Shown here: in pieces, positions 6,966-24,355 of the stretch | Position numbering within the stretch: the first letter of the stretch is position 1 | Layout: every line of letters starts with the position of its first letter | Virus record (IMG/VR): IMGVR_UViG_3300005805_000336 | Coordinates: 1-29,016 of that record | Source of the DNA: a virus | Lineage: Duplodnaviria; Caudoviricetes | Direction: 5' to 3' (one strand) | Length of the DNA: 29,016 bases | Position numbers and translations under genes: made by a program | Notes under the pieces: model-generated | Databases searched by the model: none | Told to the model about the DNA's origin: nothing | What the model saw: the letters and a program-made list of their open reading frames with translations, nothing else

Positions 6966-6968
6966 GCC

Positions 6969-9012: not shown

Positions 9013-9021
9013 GGGCAGAGC

Positions 9022-9473: not shown

Positions 9474-12400
9474 GCGGTGGCAGCAAGACGCAGACCGTAG
9501 GGTGGCGCTACTACATGGGGCTCCACATGGGGCTGTGCCACGGGCCTGTCGATGCCATCACCGAGATCCGGGTCGGCGACCGCACGGCATGGACAGGGGA
9601 GCAGACGGCTTCCGGCGCGATCGCCATCGATGCGCCAGACCTGTTCGGCGGCGAGGAGCGCGAGGGCGGCGTGCAGGGAACGCTCGACGTGATGATGGGC
9701 GAGCCGTCACAGGCGCCGAACAGCTATCTGGTGTCGAAGCTCGGCGCGCTCGTGCCGGCGTTCCGCGGCCTACTGAGCACCGTCTTCAGGCAGGGTTACG
9801 TGGGCGCCAACAACCCTTACGTCAAGCCATGGGCGTTCAAGACGAGGCGCATCCTGCAGGGGTGGCATGGAGGATCGGCGTGGTATCCGGCAAAGGCGGC
9901 GATCGTGCTGGCGGCTCAGTCCTCGAGCGTGCAAAGCCAGGCCGCCTTCGCCATCTTCGCTGGCGCAGACGAGAACAACGCGTTCCCGTACCTGTACACC
10001 ATGCCCGGGTACCAGCCAACTGCGGCCACGGTGACAGAAGACGTCGCGTCGTTCGCGCCCTACGGCGTCGACGGCAACAACAGGGCCGCCATCCTCGATT
10101 CGTCGCCAAGCTTCGACTTCGCGCAGGGCGAGGACTTCGCGATCGAGTTCGAGGTGAACGCCGCTGGCAGTAACGGCGGAATTGGATCTCAGCCCGCGAA
10201 CTTTCTCTTCTGCCGAACGGAGGTCAACTCCACGACGGGAACCGGCAACTACACGATGCTTCGGAAGTGGTCGTTCTCGGAAAACAGCAGCATCGTCAGC
10301 TTCTCTGCGCCGGATATTGCCGGCTTGGTCAGTTGTCCCGCAACGTTCGGGGCGTGGACAAGCTACCGCGTCGAGCGCAACGGGACCACGCTGCGCATGT
10401 ACAAGAACGGAGCGCTCGTAGGATCCAACACCTGCACGGCTGGCGCGATTTCTGGACCGTGCCGTATCGGCATCAATGGCCCCTATCAGTATGGCGTCGG
10501 AGACATCCCGAACACTTGGGGTGGGAACGTCGGAGTCACGAGTTACCGCAATCTGCGCATCTTCAAGGGCTCGATCACGCCGCCGATCATCGGCATGAAC
10601 CCTGCGCATATCGTCTACCAGTGCCTGACCGATCCAGAGTGGGGCATGGGCTACAGCGCGAGCATCATCGACGATGTGAGCTTCAGGGCCGCGGCGGATA
10701 CCTTCTTTGACGAGGGTATGGGGCTGTGCCTGCATTGGGCGAGGCAGGAGCAGATCGAGGCGTTCCTGCAGGTGGTTCTCGACCACGCCGGCGCGCAGCT
10801 GGTGCAGGACAGGCGCACCGGCCTGTTCAAGCTCACGCCGATCCGCGCGAACTACAGCCTCGCATCGCTGCCGGTGTACGACGAAAGCTCCGTTCGGTCT
10901 GTCGATACCTACCAGCGCCCGGGGCTTGCCGGCGCCGTCAATGCGATCACCGTCAAATTCAACGACGTGGCGACAGGCCGCCGCGGCAGCGTGACGGTGC
11001 ACAACCTGGCCAACATCGCCGCCCAGGAGGAGACAGCCGCGCAGGCCAAGGCTTACCCCGGCCTGCCGACGGCCGCGCTGGCGCTGCGGGTGGCCATGCG
11101 GGATCTGCAGGCGGCTTCCACGCCGCTGGCGAAGGTTCGGATGCGCGTCAATCGCACGGCCTACGCTGCGCTGCCCGGAGACGTGATTCGCCTGACTTGG
11201 CCGAAGCTCGGGATCGCCGATCTGGTGCTTCGGGTGCTCCGCGTGGACATCGGGCAGCTGACGGACGGCCTGATCGAGATCGAGGCAGGCGAGGACGTGT
11301 TCGGGCTGCCGGCCGCCACCTACGGGGCTCAACAGCCTTCCGGCTGGGTTCCGCCGAACCAGACGCCGCGGCCGATGGCGGCGCGTCTGGCGCGTGAGGC
11401 CACGTACTACGAGGTTCAGCGCGGCCTGTCGCCAGCCGACCTGGCCGCGCTGCCTTCCGATGCCGGCTACGTCGTCGCCGCCGGCGTTCGGGGCGGGCCG
11501 GACGCGATCGACTACAGCATGAGGACGAGGACCGGCAGCGGCGCTTTCTCCGAGGCCGCGCGCGGCGCTTTCGTGCCCTCGGGGCTTCTTTCTGCGGCGC
11601 TCACGCCAGGCGCAGCGGCCGCCACGCTGACGGGCGTCGTGGACGGCGATCTCATCGCTGCAGGCGCCTACGCGCAGATCGGCCCCGAGATCGTGCGCGT
11701 GGACTCGTTCGATGCTGGCACAGGCGCGATCGCGTTCGGCAGGGGGGTCATGGGCACGGTGGCCAGGCAGCACGCCAGCGGCACGCTGGCGTTATTCTTG
11801 GGCGACTTGATCGCTGACGACGAGACGCAGCGGCTCGACGGCGAGGTGGTCGACGTCAAGCTGCTTACGCGCACAAGCCTGGGCGAGCTCGCCGAGGGCA
11901 GCGCGCCAACCGATTCCGTTGTCATCGATTCGCTCGCCGCCAGGCCATATCCGCCGGGCCGCGTTCGCATCAACGGGGCCGCCTACCCGGCCACGGCGCT
12001 TGCACCGATCACGATCGCGTGGTCGCATCGGAACCGGCTGCAGCAGAATCTCGAGGGCGACGAGAGCGGGAACATCGGGCCGGAGCCTGGCGTGACCTAC
12101 GCCGTCGAGCTGCGCAAGGCGGACACGGGCGACCTGCTGGACCGCACGGATGGCATTGCAGGCACCAGCTATTCGGTGCCGGAGGTGGCCGGCGACTTCC
12201 CGCTGCGCGTGCAGCTGTGGGCCATGCGGTCGGATCCAGACGCTCTGGCGCTGCGGAGTGCATTCGAGGTGACGCGCGCCCTGCCCAGCCTTGGATCTTC
12301 GTCGGTGATCTGGCGATTCTTGATCCCTGCCGGCGGGCATGTTGACGTCCAGCGGTTCTACACGACGACGGCGGGCATCTATCACCAAGTGCGGCGCTAT

Positions 12401-13810
12401 TCCTCGCAGGGCGTGCTCGAGGACACGGCCTACGCATTCATGGTGAGCGGGGCCGCGCTGGACCCGTCGAACAGCCGCCTGGCCGTCGGCATCTACAGCC
12501 TGCCTGCGAGCCTGCAGCAGACCGCGTCGAAGGTCAGGGTGTACGACCTCACGGCGGCCGGGCTATCGACCAGCGTCGACATCACGCCCGACTTCCCGCC
12601 GCCATCTGGCACAGAGATCATCGGCGTCGCGGCGGCCGCCGGCAGCATCTATGCGGTGAACTACGACGGCACCCGCCTCATCCGGTACAACGCTGCAGGC
12701 GCGGAGCAGGCGCGCGTCGACGCGACGCTCTTCCGGCAGTTCGACTGCGATGGCACAGAGCTGATCTTCCCGGCCGCCAGCGGCTTTCAGAGCCGCAACC
12801 CGCTGACACTGGCCGCGATCTCGACCGTGAACTTCGCGCCAGGCGCGACCAGGACAGGGCAACTGCGTCTGGTAGGCGGAGAGGTCGTGTTCATCGGAAA
12901 TCCTCAGTCTGGCGGCAACAGCACGCTGTACCGCTACAGCATGGCCGGCGCGCGCATTGCCAGCTACTCAGCAGTCCCGTTCTCTGGTAGCGGCGCGGGC
13001 TGCGATCTGCAGGCCTTCGGCCCCTACCTGTCGGCCGGCGACAGCGGCACGCCGGCAGTGTTCGACCGGCTGGGCGGTTGGGCCTCTGTGCCGACGGCAG
13101 GCGCCGCCGCGGCCATGGAGAGCGCGCAGCGGCACGATTTCACCACGCAGCACCTCGGCATCCCGCCGTTCTCTTCTGTGGCGCTCCTGCTGCATCTGAA
13201 CGGCGCCAATGGCTCGACATCGTTCCCCGACAGCGGGCCGCTGAACAGGACGGTCACTGGCAGCGGCGGCGCGCAGATCAGCACCGCGCAATCTCGCTTC
13301 GGCGGCGCCTCGGCGAGCTTCAACGGCAGCACGGGCCAGCTCGACACCAACCTCGCGGGCACAGCGTTCGGCACAAGCGACTTCTGTGTGGAATGCTGGA
13401 TCTGGCCAGACAGCCGGGGAATAGGAGACTTCCGTAACATCTTGGGCAACGGCACCGGATTGGGCCAGTTCACGTTTCACCTTAATTCGAACTCGCCTCC
13501 GCAACTCAGGGTATACCTTAGTGGCGGCGTCACTCAGTTGAACGGCGGCACGGTGAGCGCGGACTCATGGTCTCACGTGGCGTTCACCAGACATGGGAAC
13601 ACGTTCAGTATGTTCCTCAACGGTACGCTCGTCGCTGCACACACACAATCAGGAGTCAACTTGAACGCGGCGGATGCCGTTGGGGTCGCTGGTCCGTACG
13701 GGGGTCTGCCGCGGTGGATAGGCTACATCGACGAAGTGAGGGTGACGATCGGCGCGGCCAGGTACACGAGCACCTTCGCCGCCCCGACAGCGCCATTCCC
13801 TGACTTCTGA
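9470..13810 (+). CDS. Central tail fibre / tip attachment protein (J-like) with inserted and terminal LamG-like domains
   Basis: YYMGLHMGLCHGPVD, MNPAHIVYQCLTDPEWGMG and RPYPPGRVRING motifs; C-terminal LLLHLNGANGS...YIDEVRVT LamG-like domain. Confidence 0.92.
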   Translation: MSGGSKTQTVGWRYYMGLHMGLCHGPVDAITEIRVGDRTAWTGEQTASGAIAIDAPDLFGGEEREGGVQGTLDVMMGEPSQAPNSYLVSKLGALVPAFRGLLSTVFRQGYVGANNPYVKPWAFKTRRILQGWHGGSAWYPAKAAIVLAAQSSSVQSQAAFAIFAGADENNAFPYLYTMPGYQPTAATVTEDVASFAPYGVDGNNRAAILDSSPSFDFAQGEDFAIEFEVNAAGSNGGIGSQPANFLFCRTEVNSTTGTGNYTMLRKWSFSENSSIVSFSAPDIAGLVSCPATFGAWTSYRVERNGTTLRMYKNGALVGSNTCTAGAISGPCRIGINGPYQYGVGDIPNTWGGNVGVTSYRNLRIFKGSITPPIIGMNPAHIVYQCLTDPEWGMGYSASIIDDVSFRAAADTFFDEGMGLCLHWARQEQIEAFLQVVLDHAGAQLVQDRRTGLFKLTPIRANYSLASLPVYDESSVRSVDTYQRPGLAGAVNAITVKFNDVATGRRGSVTVHNLANIAAQEETAAQAKAYPGLPTAALALRVAMRDLQAASTPLAKVRMRVNRTAYAALPGDVIRLTWPKLGIADLVLRVLRVDIGQLTDGLIEIEAGEDVFGLPAATYGAQQPSGWVPPNQTPRPMAARLAREATYYEVQRGLSPADLAALPSDAGYVVAAGVRGGPDAIDYSMRTRTGSGAFSEAARGAFVPSGLLSAALTPGAAAATLTGVVDGDLIAAGAYAQIGPEIVRVDSFDAGTGAIAFGRGVMGTVARQHASGTLALFLGDLIADDETQRLDGEVVDVKLLTRTSLGELAEGSAPTDSVVIDSLAARPYPPGRVRINGAAYPATALAPITIAWSHRNRLQQNLEGDESGNIGPEPGVTYAVELRKADTGDLLDRTDGIAGTSYSVPEVAGDFPLRVQLWAMRSDPDALALRSAFEVTRALPSLGSSSVIWRFLIPAGGHVDVQRFYTTTAGIYHQVRRYSSQGVLEDTAYAFMVSGAALDPSNSRLAVGIYSLPASLQQTASKVRVYDLTAAGLSTSVDITPDFPPPSGTEIIGVAAAAGSIYAVNYDGTRLIRYNAAGAEQARVDATLFRQFDCDGTELIFPAASGFQSRNPLTLAAISTVNFAPGATRTGQLRLVGGEVVFIGNPQSGGNSTLYRYSMAGARIASYSAVPFSGSGAGCDLQAFGPYLSAGDSGTPAVFDRLGGWASVPTAGAAAAMESAQRHDFTTQHLGIPPFSSVALLLHLNGANGSTSFPDSGPLNRTVTGSGGAQISTAQSRFGGASASFNGSTGQLDTNLAGTAFGTSDFCVECWIWPDSRGIGDFRNILGNGTGLGQFTFHLNSNSPPQLRVYLSGGVTQLNGGTVSADSWSHVAFTRHGNTFSMFLNGTLVAAHTQSGVNLNAADAVGVAGPYGGLPRWIGYIDEVRVTIGAARYTSTFAAPTAPFPDF

Positions 13811-13896
13811 TCGTGCGCCAATCCTGCGCCACTCGGCACGGGCGAACGCGTGAGAGGTGCACGGATGGCGACGATCAAGCGCGAGTGCCCGTCGTG

Positions 13897-13925
13897 AAAA
13901 GAAACCGGCCGCGCTGGGCGGCCGG
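13897..13925 (-). terminator. Intrinsic terminator of the leftward operon
   Basis: On the minus strand: CCGGCCGC-ccagc-GCGGCCGG followed by TTTCTTTT. Confidence 0.75.
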
Positions 13926-13980
13926 GAAGCCTCATGAGAGGAGGAGACAACCGGACAGGCCGGAGGGCTTTATTCTAGAC

Positions 13981-14319
13981 CTAGGCCATATCCCGCTCTT
14001 CGGCGCGCTGGGCGTAGCTCGGCCGCTTGGCCACGCGGTCCGCCACGGCCTGACCGATTGCGACGCCGCCCAACAGACCGACGCGCTCTCCGTCGATGAC
14101 GACAGCATGCTGGTCGCATCGCGCCTTGGCGGGCACGTACAGCTCGACAACGACGCGCTGCCACAGCTGACCAGGAGCTGGATCGGCTGGGATCGGCGGC
14201 AGCGTGGCTGCCATGGCTTCGCGGCGCGCGTCCATCAACGCGCGGCGTCGCCGACGAGCAGCTGGCGTGTTGCAATGCGCCCAGCGGTTGGGCTTTTGGT
14301 TGCGGCGATGACTTTTCAT
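13981..14319 (-). CDS. Hypothetical protein, last gene of the leftward operon
   Basis: ORF (ATG 14319 or GTG 14325) directly after the cassette 1 stop, followed by the terminator. Confidence 0.6.
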   Translation of the reverse strand: MKSHRRNQKPNRWAHCNTPAARRRRRALMDARREAMAATLPPIPADPAPGQLWQRVVVELYVPAKARCDQHAVVIDGERVGLLGGVAIGQAVADRVAKRPSYAQRAEERDMA

Positions 14320-14336
14320 AGTCACGGTATCTACTA

Positions 14337-14343
14337 GTTAGGA
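14337..14343 (+). other. Left boundary core site (R'-like GTTAGGA) with no upstream attC arm
   Basis: GTTAGG is complementary to CCTAAC of attC1; contains the TAA stop of the cassette 1 gene. Confidence 0.65.
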
Positions 14344-14610
14344 CCTTGCATCACGCAAGCCGTGTGCGTATCCGGCCTCGTACTCGTCTTCGCCGCGCCT
14401 GCGCTGCTGCCAGTCGTTCCAGCAGCGGGTGTGCAGGTACAGGTTCTCTTCCGTGTCGCCCGTATCCAGCGTCAGGCGCACTTCCGGCTCGTGCGCAACG
14501 TGGCCTCTGTAGTGCATCTGCTGGCCGCAGTACCAGCATCGCACCGGCCTAACTGGCGTTTCGAGCCGACCCGCGTCGGCGAGCGGCACCTGTGCGTCTT
14601 CATGCTTCAT
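14338..14610 (-). CDS. Cassette 1 hypothetical protein (CxxC...HxxC metal-binding-like)
   Basis: GGAGG RBS and ATG inside the attC1 loop; CWYC and HTRC motifs; stop in the core site. Confidence 0.7.
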   Translation of the reverse strand: MKHEDAQVPLADAGRLETPVRPVRCWYCGQQMHYRGHVAHEPEVRLTLDTGDTEENLYLHTRCWNDWQQRRRGEDEYEAGYAHGLRDARS

Positions 14611-14645
14611 CTGCGCCTCCTTGGCGGCTCAAACTATCGTTGGGC
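14547..14645 (+). repeat. attC site 1 (99 bp)
   Basis: GCCTAAC-TGGCG-TTTCGAGC...GCTCAAA-CTATC-GTTGGGC. Confidence 0.88.
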
Positions 14646-14647
14646 GG

Positions 14648-14965
14648 CTAGTAGCAGATCACGCGCGCAAGGTGCGCCACGGTCCGCACCTTGATCGTCT
14701 TGCCGCTGGTGCTTGTCACCTCTAGCCCCTTTGCGCCCATGTCGTTCTCCCAGCAGTACCAATCGAGCCATTCGTTGTCGTCGCCAACCTCGCGCCCCAG
14801 GCATGCGGTGTAGGCGTCCCACATACGCCCCATAGCCAGCGCAATCGGCGCTTCTGGGCCGCACTTCGTCAGTGCTTGCAATGCCTCGTACTGGGCCTGC
14901 CAGTCGTCGTACCTGCGCTGCCACTCCAGCAGGCGCGGCGCAATGTCTGCTGGCTTCTTCTTCAT
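14648..14965 (-). CDS. Cassette 2 hypothetical protein
   Basis: 105 aa ORF filling the cassette; WLDWYCWENDMG. Confidence 0.75.
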   Translation of the reverse strand: MKKKPADIAPRLLEWQRRYDDWQAQYEALQALTKCGPEAPIALAMGRMWDAYTACLGREVGDDNEWLDWYCWENDMGAKGLEVTSTSGKTIKVRTVAHLARVICY

Positions 14966-14999
14966 GCGTCTTTTCCCTTCGTGCCTTCGTTCACCAGCC

Positions 15000-15057
15000 G
15001 CCCAACCCCTCGCTCAACTTGACCGCCTACGGCGGCAAGTTAGCTCGAACGTTAGCC
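15000..15057 (+). repeat. attC site 2 (58 bp)
   Basis: GCCCAAC-CCCTC-GCTCAACT-tgaccgcctacggcggca-AGTTAGC-TCGAAC-GTTAGCC. Confidence 0.93.
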
Positions 15058-15291
15058 AGCACGGGCGCGAAGCATGGCGTCAGCACATGCGTAGGCGCTG
15101 GCCGCCCATTCATTGATGATCTGCTCGCCCGTCTTGCCATCCACACACCATGCGCGCCCCATCAATCCCGGCAATGCTTGTGCCGCAAAGTAGTCGCGCA
15201 TCGACATGCCAAAAGAAGTCATTTCTTGTTGTCCTTGGCCGTTCAATTCCCATACCGGGAATGCCGGTCCTCCGTCTTTGTCTGTGCTCAT
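15052..15291 (-). CDS. Cassette 3 conserved phage hypothetical protein (GGPAFP / RDYFAA family)
   Basis: DGGPAFP...GMSMRDYFAAQAL...AYACADAMLRAR; AAGGA RBS; stop in R' of attC2. Confidence 0.82.
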   Translation of the reverse strand: MSTDKDGGPAFPVWELNGQGQQEMTSFGMSMRDYFAAQALPGLMGRAWCVDGKTGEQIINEWAASAYACADAMLRARAG

Positions 15292-15324
15292 GTTGTCCTT
15301 CCTGCCAGCGTTGTTATGGGTGCT

Positions 15325-15376
15325 GGCTAACCCTTCGCTCAAGCCGACCTTCGGCGGCTTAGCTCAAACGTTAGGT
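15325..15376 (+). repeat. attC site 3 (52 bp, aadA-attC-like)
   Basis: GGCTAAC-CCTTC-GCTCAAGC-cgaccttcggcg-GCTTAGC-TCAAAC-GTTAGGT. Confidence 0.93.
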
Positions 15377-15377
15377 T

Positions 15378-16100
15378 TCACAACAGCCCCTCTTGCACAG
15401 GCTGTCGCGGCTCTTCGGGCGGCAGTAGCGTGCCCTGGGCCTGGGCGCGGCTGATGCGCTCGCAGGCGATGTCGAAATACGGGCGGTGGATCTCCACGCC
15501 GATGAAGCGGCGCCCCATCGTCACGGCGGCAACTCCTGTGCTTCCGCTGCCCATGTAGGGGTCAAAGATCACGTGCGCCTTGGGCATTTGCTCAAGGCAC
15601 CAGCGCATCACGCCTTGCGGCTTCGTTGTCGGGTGCCAGCGCTGGCCGCCTTCCTCGCCCGCCTTCACGCATGCCACGCCCTTCCACAAGTACCGGATCA
15701 CGTTTCGCTTAATCTTCAGGTTCGTCCATGCGTACTCCGCGTCGGCGAAGCTGTCATTCGGGCCAATGCCCGTGTGCTTGTCCCAGGCCACCAGCGTCCC
15801 GCCTTCCGGCAGCCTGGCGCGGTAGTGGTCGGCGCCAAACATCAGCACCGCCGGGAAACGCAGCAGCGGTGTCGGATCAAACGGCACGGTGTCTTCGTGA
15901 ATCGGTTTGTTCGCGTTCTTGCCAAGTGTGCCAAGGCGCTTCATGGTCAAGCTGACCGGAGAGGCCCCGCCGCCTCCGTGCACGTACCCAATGCCATATG
16001 GCGGGTCGGTCACGCATGCGTCGGCCTGCACAAGCGGCAGCACCTCGCGGCAGTCCCCGTGCCACAGTTCCGCGTTCCCGATCACCACTTTTTCAGCCAT
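15378..16100 (-). CDS. Cassette 4 DNA N6-adenine/N4-cytosine methyltransferase (beta class)
   Basis: TDPPYG precedes HPTTKP and FDPYMGSGSTG...FIGVEI. Confidence 0.92.
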   Translation of the reverse strand: MAEKVVIGNAELWHGDCREVLPLVQADACVTDPPYGIGYVHGGGGASPVSLTMKRLGTLGKNANKPIHEDTVPFDPTPLLRFPAVLMFGADHYRARLPEGGTLVAWDKHTGIGPNDSFADAEYAWTNLKIKRNVIRYLWKGVACVKAGEEGGQRWHPTTKPQGVMRWCLEQMPKAHVIFDPYMGSGSTGVAAVTMGRRFIGVEIHRPYFDIACERISRAQAQGTLLPPEEPRQPVQEGLL

Positions 16101-16127
16101 CGTCATCCTTCGATATATCGCTGTGAA

Positions 16128-16196
16128 ACCTAACACTACGCTGCACCGGACCCAGCCCGGCAGGCCGGGCCGGTCCGGTGAGCTACAGCGTTAGGC
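16128..16196 (+). repeat. attC site 4 (69 bp)
   Basis: ACCTAAC-ACTAC-GCTGCACC...GGTGAGC-TACAGC-GTTAGGC. Confidence 0.9.
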
Positions 16197-16388
16197 GCTT
16201 TTCATCCAAGCCACCAGATACAGCATCGTGCTGCTGCCGTGATCGCTGCAGCTCTGGCTTTGCCACGAGTCGCCGTCCCAGTAGACCCAGCAGAAGTGCT
16301 CGCCAGCATCGGTTTTGCCCCAGTTGTTGCCTTTTGCCCAAACGGGGCGGCCGTCCTTGGGCGCCGTCTCAATCGGTTGCCATTCCAT
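16191..16388 (-). CDS. Cassette 5 DUF551-like protein
   Basis: MEWQPIETAPKDG...AWM; GAGG RBS; stop in R' of attC4. Confidence 0.8.
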   Translation of the reverse strand: MEWQPIETAPKDGRPVWAKGNNWGKTDAGEHFCWVYWDGDSWQSQSCSDHGSSTMLYLVAWMKSA

Positions 16389-16412
16389 CGTTTCCTCGCT
16401 TCGGCGCCGCGC

Positions 16413-16512
16413 GCCTAACCCCTCGCTCAAGCAGACCGCGAACGGCGGCCACGTTTTCTGTCTCCGTCCAAGCCTAAGCGCCGTTCACGGCAGCTTAGCT
16501 CGAACGTTATGC
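16413..16512 (+). repeat. attC site 5 (100 bp)
   Basis: GCCTAAC-CCCTC-GCTCAAGC...GCTTAGC-TCGAAC-GTTATGC with internal stem GAACGGCG/CGCCGTTC. Confidence 0.92.
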
Positions 16513-17612
16513 GTGTTGCTCATGCCACCAGTGAGCATGCGCCAGGCTGTGGCTGCACACCGGGGCACTTGTCCATTGCCGAGGGCTTTAAGTCTGTCCA
16601 CCCGATGGGCCACCCCATCAGCCACTCGACCCACGTCGGGTTCAGCTTCCCACCAACTTGGTCGGCCAATCCCACCTGGGGATCGGTCGGCTTCCTGCCG
16701 GTCAGCTTCACCACCGAGCTCTTGGGCTCCGTCACCACGCTGGTGGGCGTGCGCCACATGCGCGCCGCCGCGTCGTTCAAGTTCGAGCGCCGGCCGTTCA
16801 AACTCTGCGCGCCCTTGTAGCGTTCCGGTATCCCAATGCGATGGTCGCTGTTCTTGGGTGTCGGCCACCTGGCCACCGCCACCGCCAGCGGCTGCTGCAA
16901 GTTGATGCCCTGCGCCGCCTTCTCGGCCTGGCGCCGCTCCCAGTTCTCCACGTTGCCGCTCTGCTTTGCATCGCCGGCATTCGGCGTCGGCCACATGGCC
17001 GCACTCGCCGCAAGGCCACGGTTGCTGCTCCTGCCGTCCGGCCGCATGTGCCGCACCGTGCCCGTCTCCGTCACGTACAGGTTCCCGCCCGTGATCGGCC
17101 GCGCGTCGGTCGCGCAGGGTGTCGGCACCCACAAGCCAGAATCGGTCGCGCTGGTGGGGGGCGCCAACGTCGGCAGCTCCCAGCACTGTCCAGCGGCAGT
17201 CATACCCGAGCGCGGCCAGGTCACCGAGCACTCGTCCGAGTCCCCGAGTAAGGAGCGCTGGGCTGTTCTCCACGAAGCAGAAGCGGGGTCGAACCTCGCC
17301 AATGATCCGCGCCATGTGGGTCCACATTCCGCTGCGCTCGCCGTCGATGCCTGCGCCCTTGCCGGCCACGCTGATGTCCTGGCAAGGAAAGCCCCCCGAA
17401 ACCACGTCAACAAGCCCGCGCCAAGGTCGTCCGTCAAAGGTGCGAACGTCGCTCCAGACCGGGAAAGCCGGGAGAAGTCCTTCGTTCTGGCGGGCGGCAA
17501 GTACGCAAGCGGCGTAGGGTTCCCACTCCACAGCGCACACGCAGCGCCACCCGAGCAACTTGCCCGCGAGTATTCCGCCACCAGCGCCTGCGAAAAGAGC
17601 CAACTCATTCAT
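16485..17612 (-). CDS. Cassette 6 DNA cytosine-5 methyltransferase, main chain
   Basis: LFAGAGG (motif I), GGFPCQ (IV), VENS (VI), HQRDRF (VIII), LKALGNGQVP (X). Confidence 0.93.
   Translation of the reverse strand: MNELALFAGAGGGILAGKLLGWRCVCAVEWEPYAACVLAARQNEGLLPAFPVWSDVRTFDGRPWRGLVDVVSGGFPCQDISVAGKGAGIDGERSGMWTHMARIIGEVRPRFCFVENSPALLTRGLGRVLGDLAALGYDCRWTVLGAADVGAPHQRDRFWLVGADTLRDRRAADHGREPVRDGDGHGAAHAAGRQEQQPWPCGECGHVADAECRRCKAERQRGELGAAPGREGGAGHQLAAAAGGGGGQVADTQEQRPSHWDTGTLQGRAEFERPALELERRGGAHVAHAHQRGDGAQELGGEADRQEADRSPGGIGRPSWWEAEPDVGRVADGVAHRVDRLKALGNGQVPRCAATAWRMLTGGMSNTHNVRAKLP
16520..17608 (-). CDS. Alternative-frame partner chain of the C5 methyltransferase (WPTP repeats plus motif IX-like segment)
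   Basis: 362 aa same-strand overlapping ORF; four W(P/R)TP-type repeats and LNPTWVEWLMGWPIGWT; true start uncertain. Confidence 0.7.
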   Translation of the reverse strand: MSWLFSQALVAEYSRASCSGGAACALWSGNPTPLAYLPPARTKDFSRLSRSGATFAPLTDDLGAGLLTWFRGAFLARTSAWPARAQASTASAAECGPTWRGSLARFDPASASWRTAQRSLLGDSDECSVTWPRSGMTAAGQCWELPTLAPPTSATDSGLWVPTPCATDARPITGGNLYVTETGTVRHMRPDGRSSNRGLAASAAMWPTPNAGDAKQSGNVENWERRQAEKAAQGINLQQPLAVAVARWPTPKNSDHRIGIPERYKGAQSLNGRRSNLNDAAARMWRTPTSVVTEPKSSVVKLTGRKPTDPQVGLADQVGGKLNPTWVEWLMGWPIGWTDLKPSAMDKCPGVQPQPGACSLVA

Positions 17613-17637
17613 ACATCTCCACGCTTCGGAACCACAC

Positions 17638-17710
17638 GCATAACACCTCGCTCAAGGCGACCCGCTACGGGCTAGCGCCCTTCGCGGGCGCCTTAGCTCC
17701 AGCGTTGGGC
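17638..17710 (+). repeat. attC site 6 (73 bp)
   Basis: GCATAAC-ACCTC-GCTCAAGG...CCTTAGC-TCCAGC-GTTGGGC. Confidence 0.92.
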
Positions 17711-17919
17711 GTCTTGCGTTCGTTCCACGGCCGCAGCGCCTCGTCCTCTGCGCGGCTGCCGGATCGCAGCAGGCGAGCGAATGGCCCTGTTGCGAGGCAT
17801 TGGCCGCATTGCACGCTCACCGTCCGCTGCATGTGGTTCCAGTTGAAGGTGTGGCGCGGGTCGCGCGTGCCGGCGTTTCCGCAATGGGGGCACGGCAGCA
17901 CGTCAGTGGAACTCGTCAT
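17665..17919 (-). CDS. Cassette 7 Lar-like zinc-ribbon protein
   Basis: LPCPHCG...VQCGQCLATGP...WNER pattern; GGAG RBS; reads through into attC6. Confidence 0.72.
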   Translation of the reverse strand: MTSSTDVLPCPHCGNAGTRDPRHTFNWNHMQRTVSVQCGQCLATGPFARLLRSGSRAEDEALRPWNERKTPNAGAKAPAKGASP

Positions 17920-18151
17920 CGTCGTCTCTCCATTGGTGGCACAGGCACTCGCAGTCGTCGTCGTGCTGCTCGCGGCTGTCAATGTCGCGGTCGTAGCGCA
18001 GCAGCGCGCACAGCCGCGCCGAGTCGCTCACGCAGGCGCAGCCGTAGGTGCCGCGCGGGCCGTCTTGGTCGCGCTCCGGCACCGGCCGCCCAACCCCTCG
18101 CTCAACCGGAGAGCCCACAGCGGGCGCCTCGGCGTTCGTTGCATCCGTCAT
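17903..18151 (-). CDS. Cassette 7 Cys-rich hypothetical protein starting inside attC7
   Basis: ATG overlaps the upstream stop (ATGA); CAC...C...CECLCH. Confidence 0.65.
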   Translation of the reverse strand: MTDATNAEAPAVGSPVERGVGRPVPERDQDGPRGTYGCACVSDSARLCALLRYDRDIDSREQHDDDCECLCHQWRDDDDEFH

Positions 18152-18181
18152 GTGGGCTCCCGGTTAGCTCGAACGTTAGGG
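18088..18181 (+). repeat. attC site 7 (94 bp)
   Basis: GCCCAAC-CCCTC-GCTCAACC-ggagagcccaca...tgtgggctccc-GGTTAGC-TCGAAC-GTTAGGG. Confidence 0.92.
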
Positions 18182-18549
18182 CTCTCTTCGTCGGGCGGGC
18201 TGTAGTCCCACTTAGCAATCAGCGCCATCGCTTGCGGCGGCAGCGGGTTCGCCACCAGTTCGGCCCGCGCACGCACCCAGCCGGCGCAAATCTTGCCATC
18301 CAGCGGGCTGTGGCACTGAAACGGCTTTCCTTCCGCCGCAGCTTTCAGAAAGTCCATCTGCGTCTGCAAGCACCCGTTCGGCACGCTTCCAGGCTGGCAT
18401 GCGCAGGTCTTGCACATGTCGTCGCGCAGTCCTGGGCCTTTCACGCCGTAGAGCCCCATTTCCACCAGCCGGGCGCGGCCAAGCTCAGCCAGGCGCGCGG
18501 CGCTCTTTCCCATTGCGCGGCCCTCGGGTGTCACTCTGCTGTGTGTCAT
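18148..18549 (-). CDS. Cassette 8 hypothetical protein (CxxCxC...CH...CAGW)
   Basis: AAGGA RBS; MCKTCAC, PFQCH and ICAGW motifs; reads through into attC7. Confidence 0.78.
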   Translation of the reverse strand: MTHSRVTPEGRAMGKSAARLAELGRARLVEMGLYGVKGPGLRDDMCKTCACQPGSVPNGCLQTQMDFLKAAAEGKPFQCHSPLDGKICAGWVRARAELVANPLPPQAMALIAKWDYSPPDEESPNVRANREPT

Positions 18550-18577
18550 GCCTATATCCTTTCGCTTCGGCTGCCAG

Positions 18578-18636
18578 CCCTAACTGGTCGCTCAACCGGG
18601 CCGCCGAAGGCGGTCCGGTTAGCTCCAACGTTGGGC
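18578..18636 (+). repeat. attC site 8 (59 bp)
   Basis: CCCTAAC-TGGTC-GCTCAACC-gggccgccgaaggcggtcc-GGTTAGC-TCCAAC-GTTGGGC. Confidence 0.93.
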
Positions 18637-18642
18637 CGCCCG

Positions 18643-18843
18643 CTACTCGCTGCGCTGCTGCTTGCGCAACTTTGCGGCATCGCGCGTCACCAGCTCGCGC
18701 ACGCGATCCGGCCCGATCAGCAGCGCATCGGCCCACTGCGCGTCGGTCATGCGGATCTTCCGCACGGCCATCACTTCGCCGCTGGAGTCCTTGGGCTTGC
18801 GCCCTTGGCCTCTTCCGGGGCCGCCGCGCTTTGGTTGTTCCAT
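18643..18843 (-). CDS. Cassette 9 small DNA-binding protein (RGG.GRGQGRKP plus RHH-like)
   Basis: KRGGPGRGQGRKP...VRKIRMTDAQW. Confidence 0.7.
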   Translation of the reverse strand: MEQPKRGGPGRGQGRKPKDSSGEVMAVRKIRMTDAQWADALLIGPDRVRELVTRDAAKLRKQQRSE

Positions 18844-18989
18844 CCTGCCACCTCTTCCACGCACGTCTCGAACTGGCTGTCTGTCATCCCGGTGGTGTCC
18901 ACGTCTTCGGGATGGGTGTCATGCGGGTGGCGCCAGGCGAAGCGGCCTTGCCGCAGCACCAGCCGCCACCCTTCGGCGGCAAGGCTCAC
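18771..18989 (-). CDS. Cassette 9 small hypothetical protein
   Basis: GTG overlaps the upstream TGA; AAGAAGG RBS-like sequence. Confidence 0.5.
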   Translation of the reverse strand: MSLAAEGWRLVLRQGRFAWRHPHDTHPEDVDTTGMTDSQFETCVEEVAGWNNQSAAAPEEAKGASPRTPAAK

Positions 18990-19147
18990 GCCTTCTTGCT
19001 CCGCAGCTCGTCGTAAACCTCGCCGGCCAGCTTCATAAACGTACCTTCGCCGAGCACTGCATCGATGGCCTGCTGCACGGTCATGCCGGCTTGCATCTTG
19101 GCGAGGATCTTGGCGCTGATCGTGGCGTTCTTGAAGACTTGGTTCAT
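18986..19147 (-). CDS. Cassette 9 small hypothetical protein (53 aa)
   Basis: MNQVFKNATISAKIL...; ATG about 30 bp downstream of the -10 box. Confidence 0.65.
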   Translation of the reverse strand: MNQVFKNATISAKILAKMQAGMTVQQAIDAVLGEGTFMKLAGEVYDELRSKKA

Positions 19148-19177
19148 GTCGTGCTGCGTTGCGTTGTCGATGGGTGT

Positions 19178-19206
19178 ACTGTAGCCACGCAATCCAACAT
19201 CGTCAA
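19178..19206 (-). promoter_or_regulatory. Sigma70-type promoter internal to cassette 9
   Basis: TTGACG-17 nt-TACAGT on the minus strand, with an A-tract upstream. Confidence 0.72.
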
Positions 19207-19239
19207 GCACTTTTTGTGGCCGCGCAATCAAGTCGCGCA

Positions 19240-19273
19240 CAAGCTCCGGTGGTCGCCTGCAAGCTCCGGTGGT
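19240..19273. repeat. 14-bp direct repeat with 20-bp period
   Basis: CAAGCTCCGGTGGT at 19240-19253 and 19260-19273. Confidence 0.85.
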
Positions 19274-19294
19274 TGCGCGCTCCGGCAAGGCCCG

Positions 19295-19367
19295 GCCCAA
19301 CAAAGCCAGTGCAGCCGACTCGCTACGGCCTTCGGCCTTCGCTCACGGCTGACTGCCGGCGTTAGGC
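19295..19367 (+). repeat. attC site 9 (73 bp)
   Basis: GCCCAAC-AAAGCC-AGTGCAGC...GCTGACT-GCCGGC-GTTAGGC (left spacer is 6 nt). Confidence 0.85.
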
Positions 19368-19715
19368 GCTCAGTGGCGGCACAGGCAGCCAATGCGTCGG
19401 GTTCGGCCCGAGCGGGTTGCTGTCGGCCGTTGTCGCATCGTCGTAAACCCATCCGCTCCACTCTTCGCCGTCAAGGTAGCTGGCAGCCACCCACGGCGTA
19501 TAGCCCGGCGTGGTGTCGTTCACCAGAACCATCGTGCCGTCGTGTGGCGCAGTGGCTATCGGCAACCACGCGCCTAACCCCTCGCTGAACGCCGCGGCGA
19601 CGCAGCCCTCGGTCGCGCAGTAGACCGGCTGCGAGCCGAGCAGTCCCGGTCCGATGACGAGCGAGCCGAGGAAGGTGTCTGCGCCGCAGTGGGCGCACTT
19701 GCCGACGGGGCGCAT
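19362..19715 (-). CDS. Cassette 10 fusion: Cys-containing N-terminus plus DUF551-like domain
   Basis: ATG overlaps the upstream TGA; CAHC..CATEGC, then FSEGLG (half attC), then WLPIATAPHDG...PTHWLPVP; stop in R' of attC9. Confidence 0.72.
   Translation of the reverse strand: MRPVGKCAHCGADTFLGSLVIGPGLLGSQPVYCATEGCVAAAFSEGLGAWLPIATAPHDGTMVLVNDTTPGYTPWVAASYLDGEEWSGWVYDDATTADSNPLGPNPTHWLPVPPLSA
19572..19591 (+). repeat. Truncated attC (R'' and L'' only)
   Basis: GCCTAAC-CCCTC-GCTGAACG with no matching L'/R' downstream. Confidence 0.75.
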
Positions 19716-20017
19716 CAGTGCCCCCCTTTCGCCGCCTCGGCTATGTCGGAAGCGGTTTGTGGCGCCAGAACGAATCTCACCCACTTGCGCGGGTTGCGGC
19801 GCTGCCGAAGGCCATTCTCGCGAAGCCAAATGGCGTATGCGGTTGTCTTCAGGCCGAGCCCGATCTCTTCCATGTGCGCGACCTCGACCTCCTCCCAATC
19901 CGTTTTTTCGACCACAAGGACCTTCAGGATGGTCTGCGCGAGTAGGTCAGGCTGGCCGCGTATCGGCTTTCTGATATCAGCAAGCCGCGCCCAGGCGGCT
20001 CGTGCTGCTTCGTTCAT
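19715..20017 (-). CDS. Hypothetical protein
   Basis: AAGGAG RBS; translationally coupled at both ends. Confidence 0.7.
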   Translation of the reverse strand: MNEAARAAWARLADIRKPIRGQPDLLAQTILKVLVVEKTDWEEVEVAHMEEIGLGLKTTAYAIWLRENGLRQRRNPRKWVRFVLAPQTASDIAEAAKGGH

Positions 20018-20316
20018 CAGTGTGCTCCTTTCGCCGCCTCAGCCTCTTTCGCGGCCATCCTGCGGCCGTAGCCGATGCAGGCGGCCATGATGCCCTCGGA
20101 CTGCACGAGGCCGACCTGGGCGCCCATCGCGGCCGTGATGGCGGCCATGAGGCCGTGCCAGAAGAGCAGGCGCTCGGCGTGCGTCATGCCATCGCATGCG
20201 ACCTTCGTGACGAGCGGAAGCACGGCGTCGGCCACCTGAGCGCCGACCATCATCGGCGGCGCCATGATGTCGATCTCGAAGTCGTGTTGCGCGAGCGGTT
20301 CGGGTTCGGTGCTCAT
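20017..20316 (-). CDS. Hypothetical protein
   Basis: MSTEPEPL start; stop overlaps the next ATG. Confidence 0.7.
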   Translation of the reverse strand: MSTEPEPLAQHDFEIDIMAPPMMVGAQVADAVLPLVTKVACDGMTHAERLLFWHGLMAAITAAMGAQVGLVQSEGIMAACIGYGRRMAAKEAEAAKGAH

Positions 20317-20453
20317 CGGTGCGGCCCTTTCCACTGCTGCTGGTCGTCGCGATCCATGCTCATCACCAAGCATGCCATGAGCATCACGCCAAGCGTGCCG
20401 CCGATGGAAAGGCCAAGCGCGCCTCAGGCGAGCGCGAGGCCGGTGAATCTCAC
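20313..20453 (-). pseudogene. Small membrane protein gene interrupted by an in-frame TGA
   Basis: MRFTGLALA*GALGLSIGGTLGVMLMACLVMS...; coupled to both neighbours (GTGA, ATGA). Confidence 0.5.
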
Positions 20454-20659
20454 GACCTCTTCCCCTTTGCCGGCCGCGTCTCCAGGCCCCGCAGGAACTC
20501 GTCGACGGTGGCGCGGCGCCAGGACAGGCGGCGGGTGTTCAAGCGCGGCGGCAGCCAGTCGGCGCCGCCACGCGCGACGGCGCTGCGGATGGCGGCCTCG
20601 GTGCGGCCGAGCAGCTTTGCCATCTCGGGCACGTATAGGACTTGCGCTTCGGTGCTCAT
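20450..20659 (-). CDS. Excisionase/AlpA-like HTH protein
   Basis: VLYVPEMAKLLGRTEAAIR...LPP...RRLSWRRATVDEFL. Confidence 0.78.
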   Translation of the reverse strand: MSTEAQVLYVPEMAKLLGRTEAAIRSAVARGGADWLPPRLNTRRLSWRRATVDEFLRGLETRPAKGKRS

Positions 20660-20669
20660 GGGATCCTCG

Positions 20670-21188
20670 TCAGGTGGTGGAAGTGTTGCCGGCTGCGGCC
20701 GCGCCGCCGTCGCCGTCGAACAGGTCGGGCGGCCCTTCGATCTCGACGCGCGCGCCGTCTTGCACGCGCTTCGCCAGCTCGGCGATGTCGCCGCTGCTCG
20801 GATAGAGCGACACGCTGCAGGTGACGTCGACAGTGCCGCCGTCGCGCGGCTGCAGGGCGAACTTCTTCACCTCGCACCCGGCGAAGCTGGCGCCGTCGAT
20901 CTTCACGCTGGCGCTGGTGATCGCGTTCGCGTAGGCCACCGGGCGCATGAAGCCGTTGCGCGCGGCCATGATCCCGCCCGACTCGGCGCGCCATAGGAAG
21001 GCTTCGAGGGCCTCGTCGAAGTAGGCGCAGAGCGCACGGTCTACCTTCGTGAAGGCGAGCTTCACGTCGACGGCCAGGATCTTCTCGTCGTCGGGGCCTT
21101 CCTTGCGCACGTTGAGGTGCTTGATCTCGGCGATGCCGGCCAGGCGGAAGACCGGGCGCTTCGGGGTGGTGGTGGTGTCGGTGCTCAT
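20670..21188 (-). CDS. Conserved phage hypothetical protein
   Basis: 172 aa with phage-like codon usage; HLNVRKEG..E..LAVDVKL. Confidence 0.78.
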   Translation of the reverse strand: MSTDTTTTPKRPVFRLAGIAEIKHLNVRKEGPDDEKILAVDVKLAFTKVDRALCAYFDEALEAFLWRAESGGIMAARNGFMRPVAYANAITSASVKIDGASFAGCEVKKFALQPRDGGTVDVTCSVSLYPSSGDIAELAKRVQDGARVEIEGPPDLFDGDGGAAAAGNTSTT

Positions 21189-21191
21189 GGC

Positions 21192-21626
21192 CTAGAAGGG
21201 AATGTCGTCGTCCATGTCGTCGAAGCCGGTGCCCGTGCCCTTCGCAGCGGGCCGCGGCGCCGGTGCAGCTGCGCGCGGTGCCGGTGCGGGCGCGGCCTGG
21301 CGCTGCTCGCCGCCTTCGCGGCTGCCGGCGAACTGCAGGTCGTCGATCCGCACGGCCAGCTTCCAGCCCGGCGAGCCGTCGCGCTTCTCGAACGTCTCGA
21401 CGCACGGCTCTCCGATGATCTCGATCTGAGTGCCCTTCTTCAGGTAGTCGGCCAGCTTCTCGGCGCGCGTGCCCCACAAGGTGCAGTCGATCCACTGCGT
21501 CGGCTGCTCGCCGTCGACTTTGCGGCCGTGGTTGTAGGCCGCGGAGAAGGCCGCGACGGGCGTGCCGTCGGGGCTGTAGCGCACCTCGGCGTCGCGGCCG
21601 AGGCGGCAGAGTCCGATCAGTTTCAT
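21192..21626 (-). CDS. ssb: Single-stranded DNA-binding protein
   Basis: RLGRDAEVRY...YLKKGTQI...; acidic tail DDDIPF. Confidence 0.95.
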   Translation of the reverse strand: MKLIGLCRLGRDAEVRYSPDGTPVAAFSAAYNHGRKVDGEQPTQWIDCTLWGTRAEKLADYLKKGTQIEIIGEPCVETFEKRDGSPGWKLAVRIDDLQFAGSREGGEQRQAAPAPAPRAAAPAPRPAAKGTGTGFDDMDDDIPF

Positions 21627-21628
21627 GC

Positions 21629-21817
21629 TCAGTGCACTCCTTGGACGTTGACGAGGATCGAGGCGTCGACCACGGCGTAGGCCGCGCGCTCGGCGCCGCG
21701 CTTCGTGGCGTAGGCCTCGCCGCTGTCGGCCACCGTGCGGCCGGTCGCGGCCTTCATGCGCCAGCGCCAGCCGTCGGCGGCCTTGTAGACGGTGATGGTG
21801 TAGGTCTTGAATTTCAT
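21629..21817 (-). CDS. YegP/DUF1508-like protein
   Basis: YKAADGWRWRMKAATGRTVADSGEAYATKRGA. Confidence 0.8.
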   Translation of the reverse strand: MKFKTYTITVYKAADGWRWRMKAATGRTVADSGEAYATKRGAERAAYAVVDASILVNVQGVH

Positions 21818-21869
21818 GCTGCCGGTCTTTCGTGGTGCTGGGGCGGCGCGAGGCCGCCCTGGGTTGTGA

Positions 21870-22583
21870 TCAGCGGCGAGCCGCCAGGGTCTGCTTCTCG
21901 AACACGCGCACGCCCGGCAGGTTCGTCGCCATTCCGGTCGCACGCACCTGGGCGCGCAGCCTCACGGAGTCGACGGCCAGCAGCGCCAGCAGCTCGGGGC
22001 GCTGCGCGACGTGCTGAACCAGCGCCAGCAGGTCGACGACCTCGAAGTCGACGGTGGTGCTGGTGCTGATGCCCTTCACGGCCGGCGGCGCCGGCACGGC
22101 CGCGGGAGGCGCGACGACCATCTGCGCGACCTGATCCTTCACGGCAGCCTCGCCGGTGCGGCCCTCGGCGGCTAGGGCCTTCGCCTCGGCCTCGAGGCGC
22201 TCGCGCTCGGCTTGAGCGGCACGCTCGCGCGCTAGGCGATCCTCCTCGGCCTTGCGCTGCTCCTCGCGCTGCCAGCCGAGCATCTTCTGCTTCAGGATGC
22301 CCTCGGCCTGCTCGAGCAGCGCGATCGGCGGCTTGAACAGCGCCATGACGGCGGCCTTCGCGGCGTCGAGCGGCTTCGTGATGCCGAGGCGCTTCTCGTT
22401 CAGCGCGTCGATCTTGCGCTTGATCGCCTTGAGCTCGTCGGCCGCGATCTCGAATGTTGCGGCGTCGACGACCTCGAAGGACTGCACGAGGTCGAGCGCG
22501 CTGGCGGCGCCGCGCTGCAGGTCGGCGCTGCTGGGCGCTGCGATCGCGACGCTAGCGGGGATGGTGGCGGTGGTGTCGTTCAC
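21870..22583 (-). CDS. Coiled-coil phage protein of the recombination module
   Basis: GTG overlaps the exonuclease stop; ITKPLDAAK..., LPGVRVFE. Confidence 0.75.
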   Translation of the reverse strand: MNDTTATIPASVAIAAPSSADLQRGAASALDLVQSFEVVDAATFEIAADELKAIKRKIDALNEKRLGITKPLDAAKAAVMALFKPPIALLEQAEGILKQKMLGWQREEQRKAEEDRLARERAAQAERERLEAEAKALAAEGRTGEAAVKDQVAQMVVAPPAAVPAPPAVKGISTSTTVDFEVVDLLALVQHVAQRPELLALLAVDSVRLRAQVRATGMATNLPGVRVFEKQTLAARR

Positions 22584-23203
22584 TTGGTGGCTTCCTTCCA
22601 GGAGTGCAGCGCCAAGCATGCCATGAAGCATGCTGAATCGCTGTGATTCGTGAATCGGTGCAAACGATAGGTGCCGTCGTCAAACAGATGAACGCTGGCG
22701 CGGCGGATCTGAGAGCCTGGTCCGAGGTCGGCGTCGTTGACGTGCAGCAGCTCCTCGTAGGCAGCCAACTGCACGCCGAAGGACGGGTGCGGCTGCAGGC
22801 CGGTCTTGCGGTCGACCAGCACGATGTCGGTGCCGTGCCCGCGCCACGCGCGCATCCGCACCAGGCCGTCAAGCGTGCCGGCGTAGCGAAGCGTCGGGTG
22901 GTAGAGCCGCTGCTCGGTGGCGAGCACCTCGACGTCGTTCTCGATCTTGAAGCGGCGCCAGGCGTGCACGCAAGCCATGACGCGCGCATCGGTGCCGTCG
23001 TCGTCGAGCTCGCCCAGGTCGTCGAGTTCGCAGGCTAGGTGCACGGCCAAACCGAAGGCGCGCGCGGCTTCGAGCAGCTGCGGCGGCACCGCGCTGAAGT
23101 CAGGGCCGATGCCGGCGCCCTTGAGCAGCTGGGTGACGCTCGGCAGCCTCACGCCGTCGAGGGCGTAGGTGTGCGAGGCCTCGTCGAATGAGAAGAAGGG
23201 CAT
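22580..23203 (-). CDS. PD-(D/E)XK exonuclease
   Basis: FDEASHTY, LPSVTQLL, G..VH, YAGTLD...VDRKTG...QLAAY. Confidence 0.85.
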   Translation of the reverse strand: MPFFSFDEASHTYALDGVRLPSVTQLLKGAGIGPDFSAVPPQLLEAARAFGLAVHLACELDDLGELDDDGTDARVMACVHAWRRFKIENDVEVLATEQRLYHPTLRYAGTLDGLVRMRAWRGHGTDIVLVDRKTGLQPHPSFGVQLAAYEELLHVNDADLGPGSQIRRASVHLFDDGTYRLHRFTNHSDSACFMACLALHSWKEATK

Positions 23204-24078
23204 CACGCGCCCCGCTTCAGCAGCTCGGCCTTCACCGTGTCGAAGTCGGCCTTCGACAGCTTGCCGGCCTCGATCACCACTCCATGCAAGCCGACGGCCG
23301 CGGCCACCTCGGCCAGATCGGCGCCGATGCTGCGCGCCTTGTTGCCCAGGTAGGCGATCTCGCCCTGGCCGACCATGCGGTCGCCGCTAGGCGCGGGCGC
23401 GGCGGCCTGGACCGGCGCCGTCACAGCCGCATTCTCCTCGGCGCTCGCGCCGGCGCTAGTGGCAGGCGTCGCGTCGACTACGTCGGCCGGCGCCGGTGCG
23501 GCGCTGGGCCGTGGCTTGCGCGCCACCGTCGGGCCTGCAGGCGGCTGAACGACAGTGGTGCCGTCGGACTGGGTGGCGACGACGTCGAGATCCTGCGCTT
23601 CCTCGGTGACGATCGCGCCGCCCAGCGCTGCCGGGAAGGTCGCGCGCACGCCCTCGGCGATGCACCGGGCGCGCAGCATGGCGCGCGGTGTCCGCTTCCA
23701 ATTGTCCTTGTTCAGCAGGCCGGCGCGGGCAGCCATGTCGAGGTTCCACTCGATCCGCACGCTGCCGCCCTTCGGGTGGCTGAACGTGCCGCTCACGACC
23801 TGCTCGGTGAAGTCGTGCCACTGCACGCTGCCGCCGGCCTGCTGAAAGCGGGCGAGCACGCTGTGCGTCTTGCGCGCCGGGCGGCCTTGGATGACGTCGT
23901 AGTCCTGCGCCACGCTGGCCGGATGCAGGCCCTCGGCGTCGGCGATCAGCATCAGCGCGTAGGCTTGCTGCGGCGTCTGGATGCCGAACAGCTTCGACTC
24001 GGCCAGGGCGCCGGCCATGTCGCGCATGTCGGTGAGGGAGAAGGCGCGCTGCTCGCGCACCGCAGGTAGGTTGCTCAT
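23203..24078 (-). CDS. RecT/Red-beta-like single-strand annealing protein
   Basis: GLHP....YDVIQGRP, AARAGL..KDNWKRTPRAMLRARC...RATFP; adjacent to exonuclease and SSB. Confidence 0.75.
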   Translation of the reverse strand: MSNLPAVREQRAFSLTDMRDMAGALAESKLFGIQTPQQAYALMLIADAEGLHPASVAQDYDVIQGRPARKTHSVLARFQQAGGSVQWHDFTEQVVSGTFSHPKGGSVRIEWNLDMAARAGLLNKDNWKRTPRAMLRARCIAEGVRATFPAALGGAIVTEEAQDLDVVATQSDGTTVVQPPAGPTVARKPRPSAAPAPADVVDATPATSAGASAEENAAVTAPVQAAAPAPSGDRMVGQGEIAYLGNKARSIGADLAEVAAAVGLHGVVIEAGKLSKADFDTVKAELLKRGA

Positions 24079-24130
24079 GGGTGGTTGTCGTCCTGTGATG
24101 CCGCCGGTCTATCGCCGAGCGCGCATCGCA

Positions 24131-24159
24131 ATGCTACATCGTAGCGGAGCGCGGCGCAA
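24131..24159 (-). promoter_or_regulatory. Leftward early promoter (PL-like)
   Basis: TTGCGC-17 nt-TAGCAT on the minus strand. Confidence 0.55.
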
Positions 24160-24300
24160 CTTGCAGTAGCATGCAAGGCGAAAAAATGCCGGGACAGCGG
24201 CCCCGGCTTTCACAGTCTTCTTGCACTTCGCCCCTACATCAGCAGCGCCAGCGCCGCGGTGGTATCCGAGTGCATAGGTGGGGATTTTGTTCCTCGGGGC

Positions 24301-24329
24301 TTGCAATATCAGGCTATCGGAAATAGCAT
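24301..24329 (+). promoter_or_regulatory. Rightward early promoter (PR-like)
   Basis: TTGCAA-17 nt-TAGCAT upstream of the Cro-like gene. Confidence 0.62.
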
Positions 24330-24355
24330 CGCGCTGCAACTATGAAGGGGAACAC

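Follow-up and report, generated by a model that had tools for sequence, protein, structure and literature searches.

A phage cassette array with genes antisense to its attC sites, likely reshuffled by an integron integrase acting in trans

Results

Ten cassette units in a phage genome

The IMG/VR virus record IMGVR_UViG_3300005805_000336 (Duplodnaviria; Caudoviricetes) was analysed in its entirety as one window of 29,016 bp, an approximately half-complete phage genome. It contains an array of ten units (14338-19590) delimited by nine complete integron-type attC sites and one truncated site. A detector combining a regular expression with base pairing, which gives two false hits in 1.8 Mb of Markov sequence and misses some sites caught by a covariance model, returned eight attC-like sites, all with their top strand on the plus strand. 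A covariance model built from these eight recovered a ninth site at 14547-14645 (34 bits, E 3e-5), and the tenth (19572-19590) retains the left arm alone. The nine full sites are 52-100 bp long, with an inverse core ending in AAC and a core starting with GTT, and they carry R and L boxes; an extrahelical bulged base is visible in their folds.

The first-pass annotation had placed the array at 14639-19578. The array is real, but this left limit is too far to the right, as the array starts at a G|TT at 14337. This entry point (14320-14343, plus strand) is a candidate attI-equivalent or a secondary, attG-like site; no attC hairpin was found upstream of 14337, where the covariance model has no match. 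Contigs of sequencing runs X4, X5 and X12 align to the left flank and stop at 14339-14342. Position 14639 was considered as a half site or an attI and rejected, since the covariance model shows a full attC at 14547-14645.

The open reading frames (ORFs) of all ten units lie on the minus strand, which is the attC bottom strand, and the usual co-orientation of gene and attC is thus not found. Unit 1 (14338-14639) holds a 90-amino-acid (aa) ORF (14610-14338) whose start codon and ribosome-binding motif sit within the unit's own attC (site 1, 14547-14645, plus strand, 99 bp); close likenesses of the body of this site occur in six of seven viral loci, with differing flanks. Unit 2 (14640-15051; attC 15000-15057) holds a 105-aa ORF (14965-14648), and unit 3 (15052-15370; attC 15325-15376) a 79-aa ORF of family phrog_2201. 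Homologues of the latter were found at seven loci (37-46% identity), and as the attC model had no match in the six loci searched, this gene family also exists without flanking sites. Unit 4 (15371-16190; attC 16128-16196) encodes an N6/N4 DNA methyltransferase (16106-15378; PF01555, E 4e-16), and the 65-aa ORF of unit 5 (16191-16506; attC 16413-16512) has no family match. Unit 6 (16507-17704; attC 17638-17710) encodes a C5 cytosine methyltransferase in two overlapping frames (17612-16485 and 17608-16520) with start codons four bases apart, both of which match methylase families (PF00145, E 9e-33; phrog_1008, E 4e-36).

Unit 7 (17705-18175; attC 18088-18181) contains an 82-aa ORF that begins inside the unit's own attC (18151), together with a Lar-like restriction alleviation protein (17919-17665; PF14354, E 5e-9). 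Unit 8 (18176-18630; attC 18578-18636) carries a 133-aa ORF (18549-18148) with ten viral homologues. Its stop overlaps the start of unit 7 at 18148-18151, inside the attC hairpin 18088-18181, and any coupling between the two therefore depends on cassette order. Unit 9 (18631-19361; attC 19295-19367) has three small ORFs preceded by a promoter-like element (19206-19178), from a scan that yielded one site versus 0.9 expected by chance, no excess. Unit 10 (19362-19590; attC left arm 19572-19590) contains a DUF551-like gene (weak match to PF04448, E 0.005) that is joined in frame with sequence upstream of it (ORF 19715-19362). In run X7, one contig runs past 19578 into a different attC-like arm.

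Unit ends are complementary across each gene

It had been claimed from the sequence that the two ends of each unit are reverse complements, that they match better than the two cores of a single site, and that this is the footprint of circular intermediates. The end pairs that had been quoted are all present. Contiguous end matches in units 1-10 are 6, 11, 12, 13, 9, 11, 8, 9, 9 and 9 bp, so that units 2-10 match over 8-13 bp as claimed, and the cores within single sites match over 3, 5, 6, 4, 3, 3, 3 and 3 bp (range 3-6). We ran the permutation test exactly. Only 2 of the 362,880 pairings of nine units reach the observed total of 91 (permutation mean 44.8), and with unit 1 included 2 of 3,628,800 pairings score as high. 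The signal persists without the 7-bp core, at positions 8-12 (23/362,880), and is lost past position 12-13 (P 0.1 and 0.56).

In a circular cassette, the core and inverse core are complementary. When the circle forms were built in silico, they gave more stable folds than the native sites in 9/9 cases; the bottom strand of the circle form folded more stably than the top in 8/9, with z-scores of -3.2 to -6.9 in 8/9.

A set of 133 bacterial loci recovered by the same arm motif was used for comparison. In these, the end match is exactly 12 bp in 64 of 118 units, and in units of at most 800 bp positions 8-12 match the unit's own end at 0.86-0.98 versus 0.43-0.84 for other units of the same array. 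Long "units" with a low end match are probably merged cassettes and were retained in the counts. Since bacterial arrays show an equally strong match, the end match is not special to the phage array, and end complementarity alone is an ordinary cassette signature. What is uncommon is that the array sits in a phage, has antisense genes and lacks an integrase in cis.

A sister phage carries a different array between the same junctions

The complete genome G003 (47,353 bp, with a terminal repeat) is a sister of the window phage. The two are 99.76% identical over window positions 1-13162 (13,163 bp aligned), 99.1% over 13881-14342 and 99.86% over 19360-29014 (9,655 bp). Between the G|TT at 14337 and that at 19361, the window holds nine units (5,024 bp). 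In G003, whose array spans the ends of the record, the same interval is approximately 3.05 kb long; five sites were detected there, probably delimiting six units, and the end matches are 10, 12, 10, 12 and 4 bp. The two arrays have no unit in common in this interval, only short arm similarities; unit 10 is common to both. G003 is the same as the window through the GTTAGG of the entry point and then enters a different cassette: identity ends five bases past the first G (14337) and returns one base before the G|TT at 19361.

Single units have also changed neighbours. Unit 2 recurs at 99% identity in two loci (L147 and L148), where it starts at G|TT, has other neighbours on both sides and carries another hairpin body, and a homologue of it lies between two sites of a phage-borne integron (G030). 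Unit 1 recurs in G042 behind a different site. In sequencing runs from several studies, contigs start at, or depart from the window at, 14337, 14638 and 19360, although run X1 is possibly the source sample and is not independent. No RNA run containing this sequence was listed. The proposal that these units were mobilised by site-specific recombination at G|TT, and are not mere dispersed hairpins, is supported by G003 and by the unit 2 and unit 1 variants. As the sister carries wholly different units between the same junctions, these phages likely swap accessory genes via an integron integrase that they do not themselves encode.

Cassette genes are antisense in related phage arrays

Using a codon model trained on this phage to call strands, and loci recovered with the window motif, we found 98 antisense, 1 sense and 20 uncalled units among the 119 units of 40 viral loci, the window included. 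With the same caller and detector, the 118 bacterial units comprised 60 sense, 15 antisense and 43 uncalled, and some of the antisense ones come from loci whose cargo is phage-like (L187, L213). These calls are anchored by the canonical integron L379, in which intI points away from sites of the same polarity. In 60 short antisense units, the stop codon falls within -11 to +16 of the G in 48, in 25 of which it is the TAA of the core, and 14 of the short units begin inside the hairpin.

When viral cargo was searched against the bacterial loci, no gene turned up in both the sense and the antisense orientation to attC; viral cargo proteins match these only in antisense units or in a stretch with no detected site nearby. 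Gene flipping between inverted ends is thus unsupported. Within the bacterial chromosomal integron L379, two adjacent antisense cassettes of phage type, encoding a Lar-like protein and an N6/N4 methylase (L379:5936-7495), stand among mostly sense ones, which suggests flow between phage and host arrays.

Hairpin bodies are nearer a viral than a bacterial pool and are exchanged

The hairpin bodies of the window are nearer to the viral than to the bacterial pool in 9/9 sites. At site 15000-15057 the body has 98% identity to one from the G012 phage integron, versus at most 78% for 232 bacterial bodies, and similar bodies recur widely (92 pairs). Among 226 viral sites, the body differs in six of eight locus pairs that share a gene start and not the downstream neighbour; counted as independent events, five have a different body and two do not. 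The body is kept in all three such pairs among 225 bacterial sites. The first differences lie 1-14 bases past AAC, inside the consensus arms, which is compatible both with top-strand exchange at AA|C and with microhomology of the RecT type.

Some related phages encode an integron integrase beside their arrays

No window protein matches an integrase family (TIGR02249, PF00589), and G003, whose other half encodes lysis, terminase, portal and capsid genes, has no match to PF00589, TIGR02249 or PF00239 (tyrosine recombinase, integron integrase and resolvase). A PHROG label of "transposase" in G003 was rejected, as Pfam gives a phage metallopeptidase domain. A cluster of attC sites lacking an integron integrase (CALIN) is defined by at least two attC sites with no integron integrase nearby (PMC9024848), as is the case in both the window and G003. 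An intI gene adjoining the array, the mark of a complete integron, is absent from both and present in their relatives G012 and G030.

These two are the only ones of 28 virus records with an IntI above the TIGR02249 cut-off, versus five of six bacterial genomes bearing the attC motif. In both, intI lies on the cassette-gene strand, flanked by the array on one side and by a second tyrosine recombinase on the other, and the end matches of the first units are 11 and 9 bp. Their enzymes retain every catalytic motif as well as the insertion specific to integron integrases. Searched against viral sequences, the G012 enzyme identified 11 loci, seven of which have an attI-like end with two direct repeats by eye (a pattern caught five of them); two of the seven have a short intI frame. 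Short frames are seen in the phage intI genes of L339, L342 and L343, and in L339 the array has the opposite orientation relative to the intI remnant. Arrays without intI (L018, L021, L044, L059, L074, L075 and L352) begin at similar sites, which form no hairpin and look like a simple attI core.

The best 120 relatives in the database are 67-98% identical. Among the matches listed in 401 genomes of the order of G036, a tally that includes two unpublished genomes whose sequences support no claim here, identity is 57% at most. Phylogenetically, 30 relatives sampled by similarity group with four phage enzymes in one clade (100/100), to which the G030 enzyme is a long-branched sister. The donor of the enzyme acting on the window array may be a phage-type IntI or a host IntI. 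Among 50,697 records of cultured phages, a blastn search with the array gave 50 hits; every one of the 40 listed maps to the two methylase genes, and not one spans a whole unit. The IntI-like proteins of cultured phages are at most 53% identical, and no cultured model phage was found in this set.

The array ends a leftward early gene run

The plus strand encodes tail and connector genes up to 13810. A leftward, minus-strand run begins at 24078, with replication and late-regulation genes beyond it on the plus strand. Its early-left genes (19715-24078, minus), which include those for a single-stranded DNA-binding protein, an exonuclease and a RecT-like annealing protein, lie 5' of the array on the strand of every cassette gene, and the array is the far end of the run. 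A terminator-like hairpin (13905-13925, minus) at the end of the run faces the tail gene; the scan gave eight terminator-like sites versus 6.7 expected by chance, no excess. A weak scan found no promoter-like site on the plus strand corresponding to a cassette promoter (Pc) along the top strand. As the genes are antisense, a Pc there would be useless. The window has no match to an Rfam family.

Between the divergent early runs (24078-24356), no repressor-family match and no long ORF were found. As G003 also lacks an integrase, the phage may be lytic and derive from a temperate ancestor. Elsewhere, the window encodes a free-standing HNH endonuclease inside the tail gene cluster (2187-2693) and a phage sigma-70-type factor (27634-28305). 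The C-terminal part of a tail protein (13165-13881) diverges from G003, likely a swap of the receptor-binding module.

Discussion

The locus is, with good confidence, an integron-type cassette array in the early-left region of a phage, with genes antisense to attC; the IntI that likely reshuffles it would come in trans from the host or another phage. The substrate of IntI is the folded bottom strand, which it recombines at the AAC of R' (PMC5027507). Applied here, it would fold the bottom strands, excise a unit as a circle in which the two ends make a single extended stem, and insert it at another G|TT, probably often at 14337, which would be a true attI or a preferred attG-like site. We infer the circular intermediates from integron biology, since no free circle was seen in contigs. 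The genes would be reversed so as to be read from the phage's leftward early promoter. In relatives with an intI of their own, the canonical order intI-attI-attC sets intI at the end of this leftward early run, as for a phage integrase; attC polarity would therefore oppose transcription, and only antisense cargo would be expressed. Later loss of intI would leave arrays like that of the window. If replication starts near the initiator gene (24912-25790), a leftward fork would place the bottom strands on the template of the lagging strand, where excision is favoured (PMC5371416). The cargo, with its methylases and Lar-like protein, may help against host restriction.

Several observations weigh against this explanation. 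There is no integrase in the window or G003, so that the enzyme is a candidate only, and PF00589 occurs in 7 of 35 virus records and in 2 of 11 nearly complete carriers. The site at 14337 is unlike the attI-like sites of phages that bear intI. The end match of unit 1 is only 6 bp and its site is weakly folded (z -0.8). One of the nine long plus-strand ORFs in the array has a weak family match (phrog_28355, E 3e-6). The strand counts describe relatives of the window rather than all phages, as caller and motif derive from it. No circle junction was found among the listed joints of eight runs, a search confined to contigs, which drop rare forms, with joints having sides under 30 bases and unknown middles (most of them) excluded. 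Finally, the body differences on shared gene starts are not explained by G|TT recombination alone.

This last point bears on an alternative that we consider unlikely, in which the sites originally served an integrase and present shuffling is mainly the work of the phage's RecT-like annealing protein and exonuclease on short conserved arms. Genes for both lie upstream of the array, the sister genome has none of the site-specific recombinases searched for, bodies are exchanged on the same gene, and similar bodies are widespread. Against this, the G003 junctions share merely six bases from the G at 14337 and one base left of the G|TT at 19361, too few for homology-driven exchange; 14337 has no arm at all, and the unit-specific end matches reach past the shared consensus.

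That the array is instead a decaying relic of a host chromosomal integron, captured once, is very improbable. Its antisense genes are unlike 60 of the 75 called bacterial units, its cargo matches phage families, every one of its hairpin bodies is nearer the viral pool, and the existence of a 99.8% identical sister with a different array largely refutes it. Least credible of all, to the point of near dismissal, is the idea that the repeats are RNA hairpins, acting as terminators or translation signals and scattered between phage genes, with the end match as a by-product. The repeats do separate genes of like orientation on the predicted mRNA, and start or stop codons often fall within them. However, the ends that pair stand on opposite sides of a whole gene and not in one hairpin, the units are mobile at G|TT, no Rfam family is found, and the same anatomy adjoins intI in bacteria and phages.

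Beyond IntI acting in trans on this array, it is conceivable, although we would not yet favour it, that betaproteobacterial phages run a mirror-image cassette economy, with a phage-specific IntI clade and pool and with exchange on both sides (G|TT and AA|C). If so, a phage cassette pool would shuffle counter-defence genes among phages and into host integrons, and both-side exchange would graft hairpin bodies onto genes, a route for making new cassettes. The origin of cassettes has been called largely unknown (PMC5371416), and unit-specific inverted ends with exchangeable hairpin bodies offer a concrete handle on it. Integrons are regarded as belonging to bacteria, and more recently as stores of anti-phage genes; here, phages appear to employ this chemistry for accessory genes of their own, including methylases and restriction alleviation. 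The window and G003 constitute a natural experiment, a single backbone with two disjoint arrays and no recombinase of its own.

Comparison with known systems

Four known systems resemble the array. Burkholderiales sedentary chromosomal integrons (L202, L238, L379) share its attC arm motif, G|TT polarity relative to intI, and end match (mode 12 bp), but have intI in cis, mostly sense genes and non-phage cargo, and their hairpin bodies are longer and more uniform (median 112 versus 83 nt). Insertion by attC x attG recombination (Loot et al., bioRxiv 10.1101/2022.09.11.507474) accounts for arrays that begin at a GWT with no hairpin, as at 14337, in the absence of an integron platform; very many sites are used there, whereas here one site is apparently reused by different cassettes. 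The phage-borne complete integrons (G012, G030, G044-G046) agree with the array in site family, cassette polarity and place in the leftward run, and have cargo and hairpin bodies in common with it. Next to the phage integrase they possess an intI gene and an attI-like site bearing two direct repeats, neither of which the window phage has. In the literature covered, from which subscription journals are largely missing, no paper describing reversed phage cassettes or phage-encoded integrons was found, and the accessible text of bioRxiv 10.1101/2025.06.18.660453 holds nothing on phage cassettes.

The closest published precedent is the report by Qi et al. (2023) of 17 CALINs in 10,705 phage genomes, with a typical layout or divergent sites, in which five of six phage attC sites tested recombined with IntI1 in vivo (PMC9892861). 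Those CALINs are likewise integrase-less attC clusters in phage genomes with DNA methyltransferase cargo. The accessible part of that paper does not mention genes that are uniformly antisense, sister phages that exchange units or an IntI clade linked to phages, although its supplementary CALINs may include antisense ones. Phage CALINs are thus already published; the present locus contributes a near-isogenic pair without a recombinase and the exchange of hairpin bodies.

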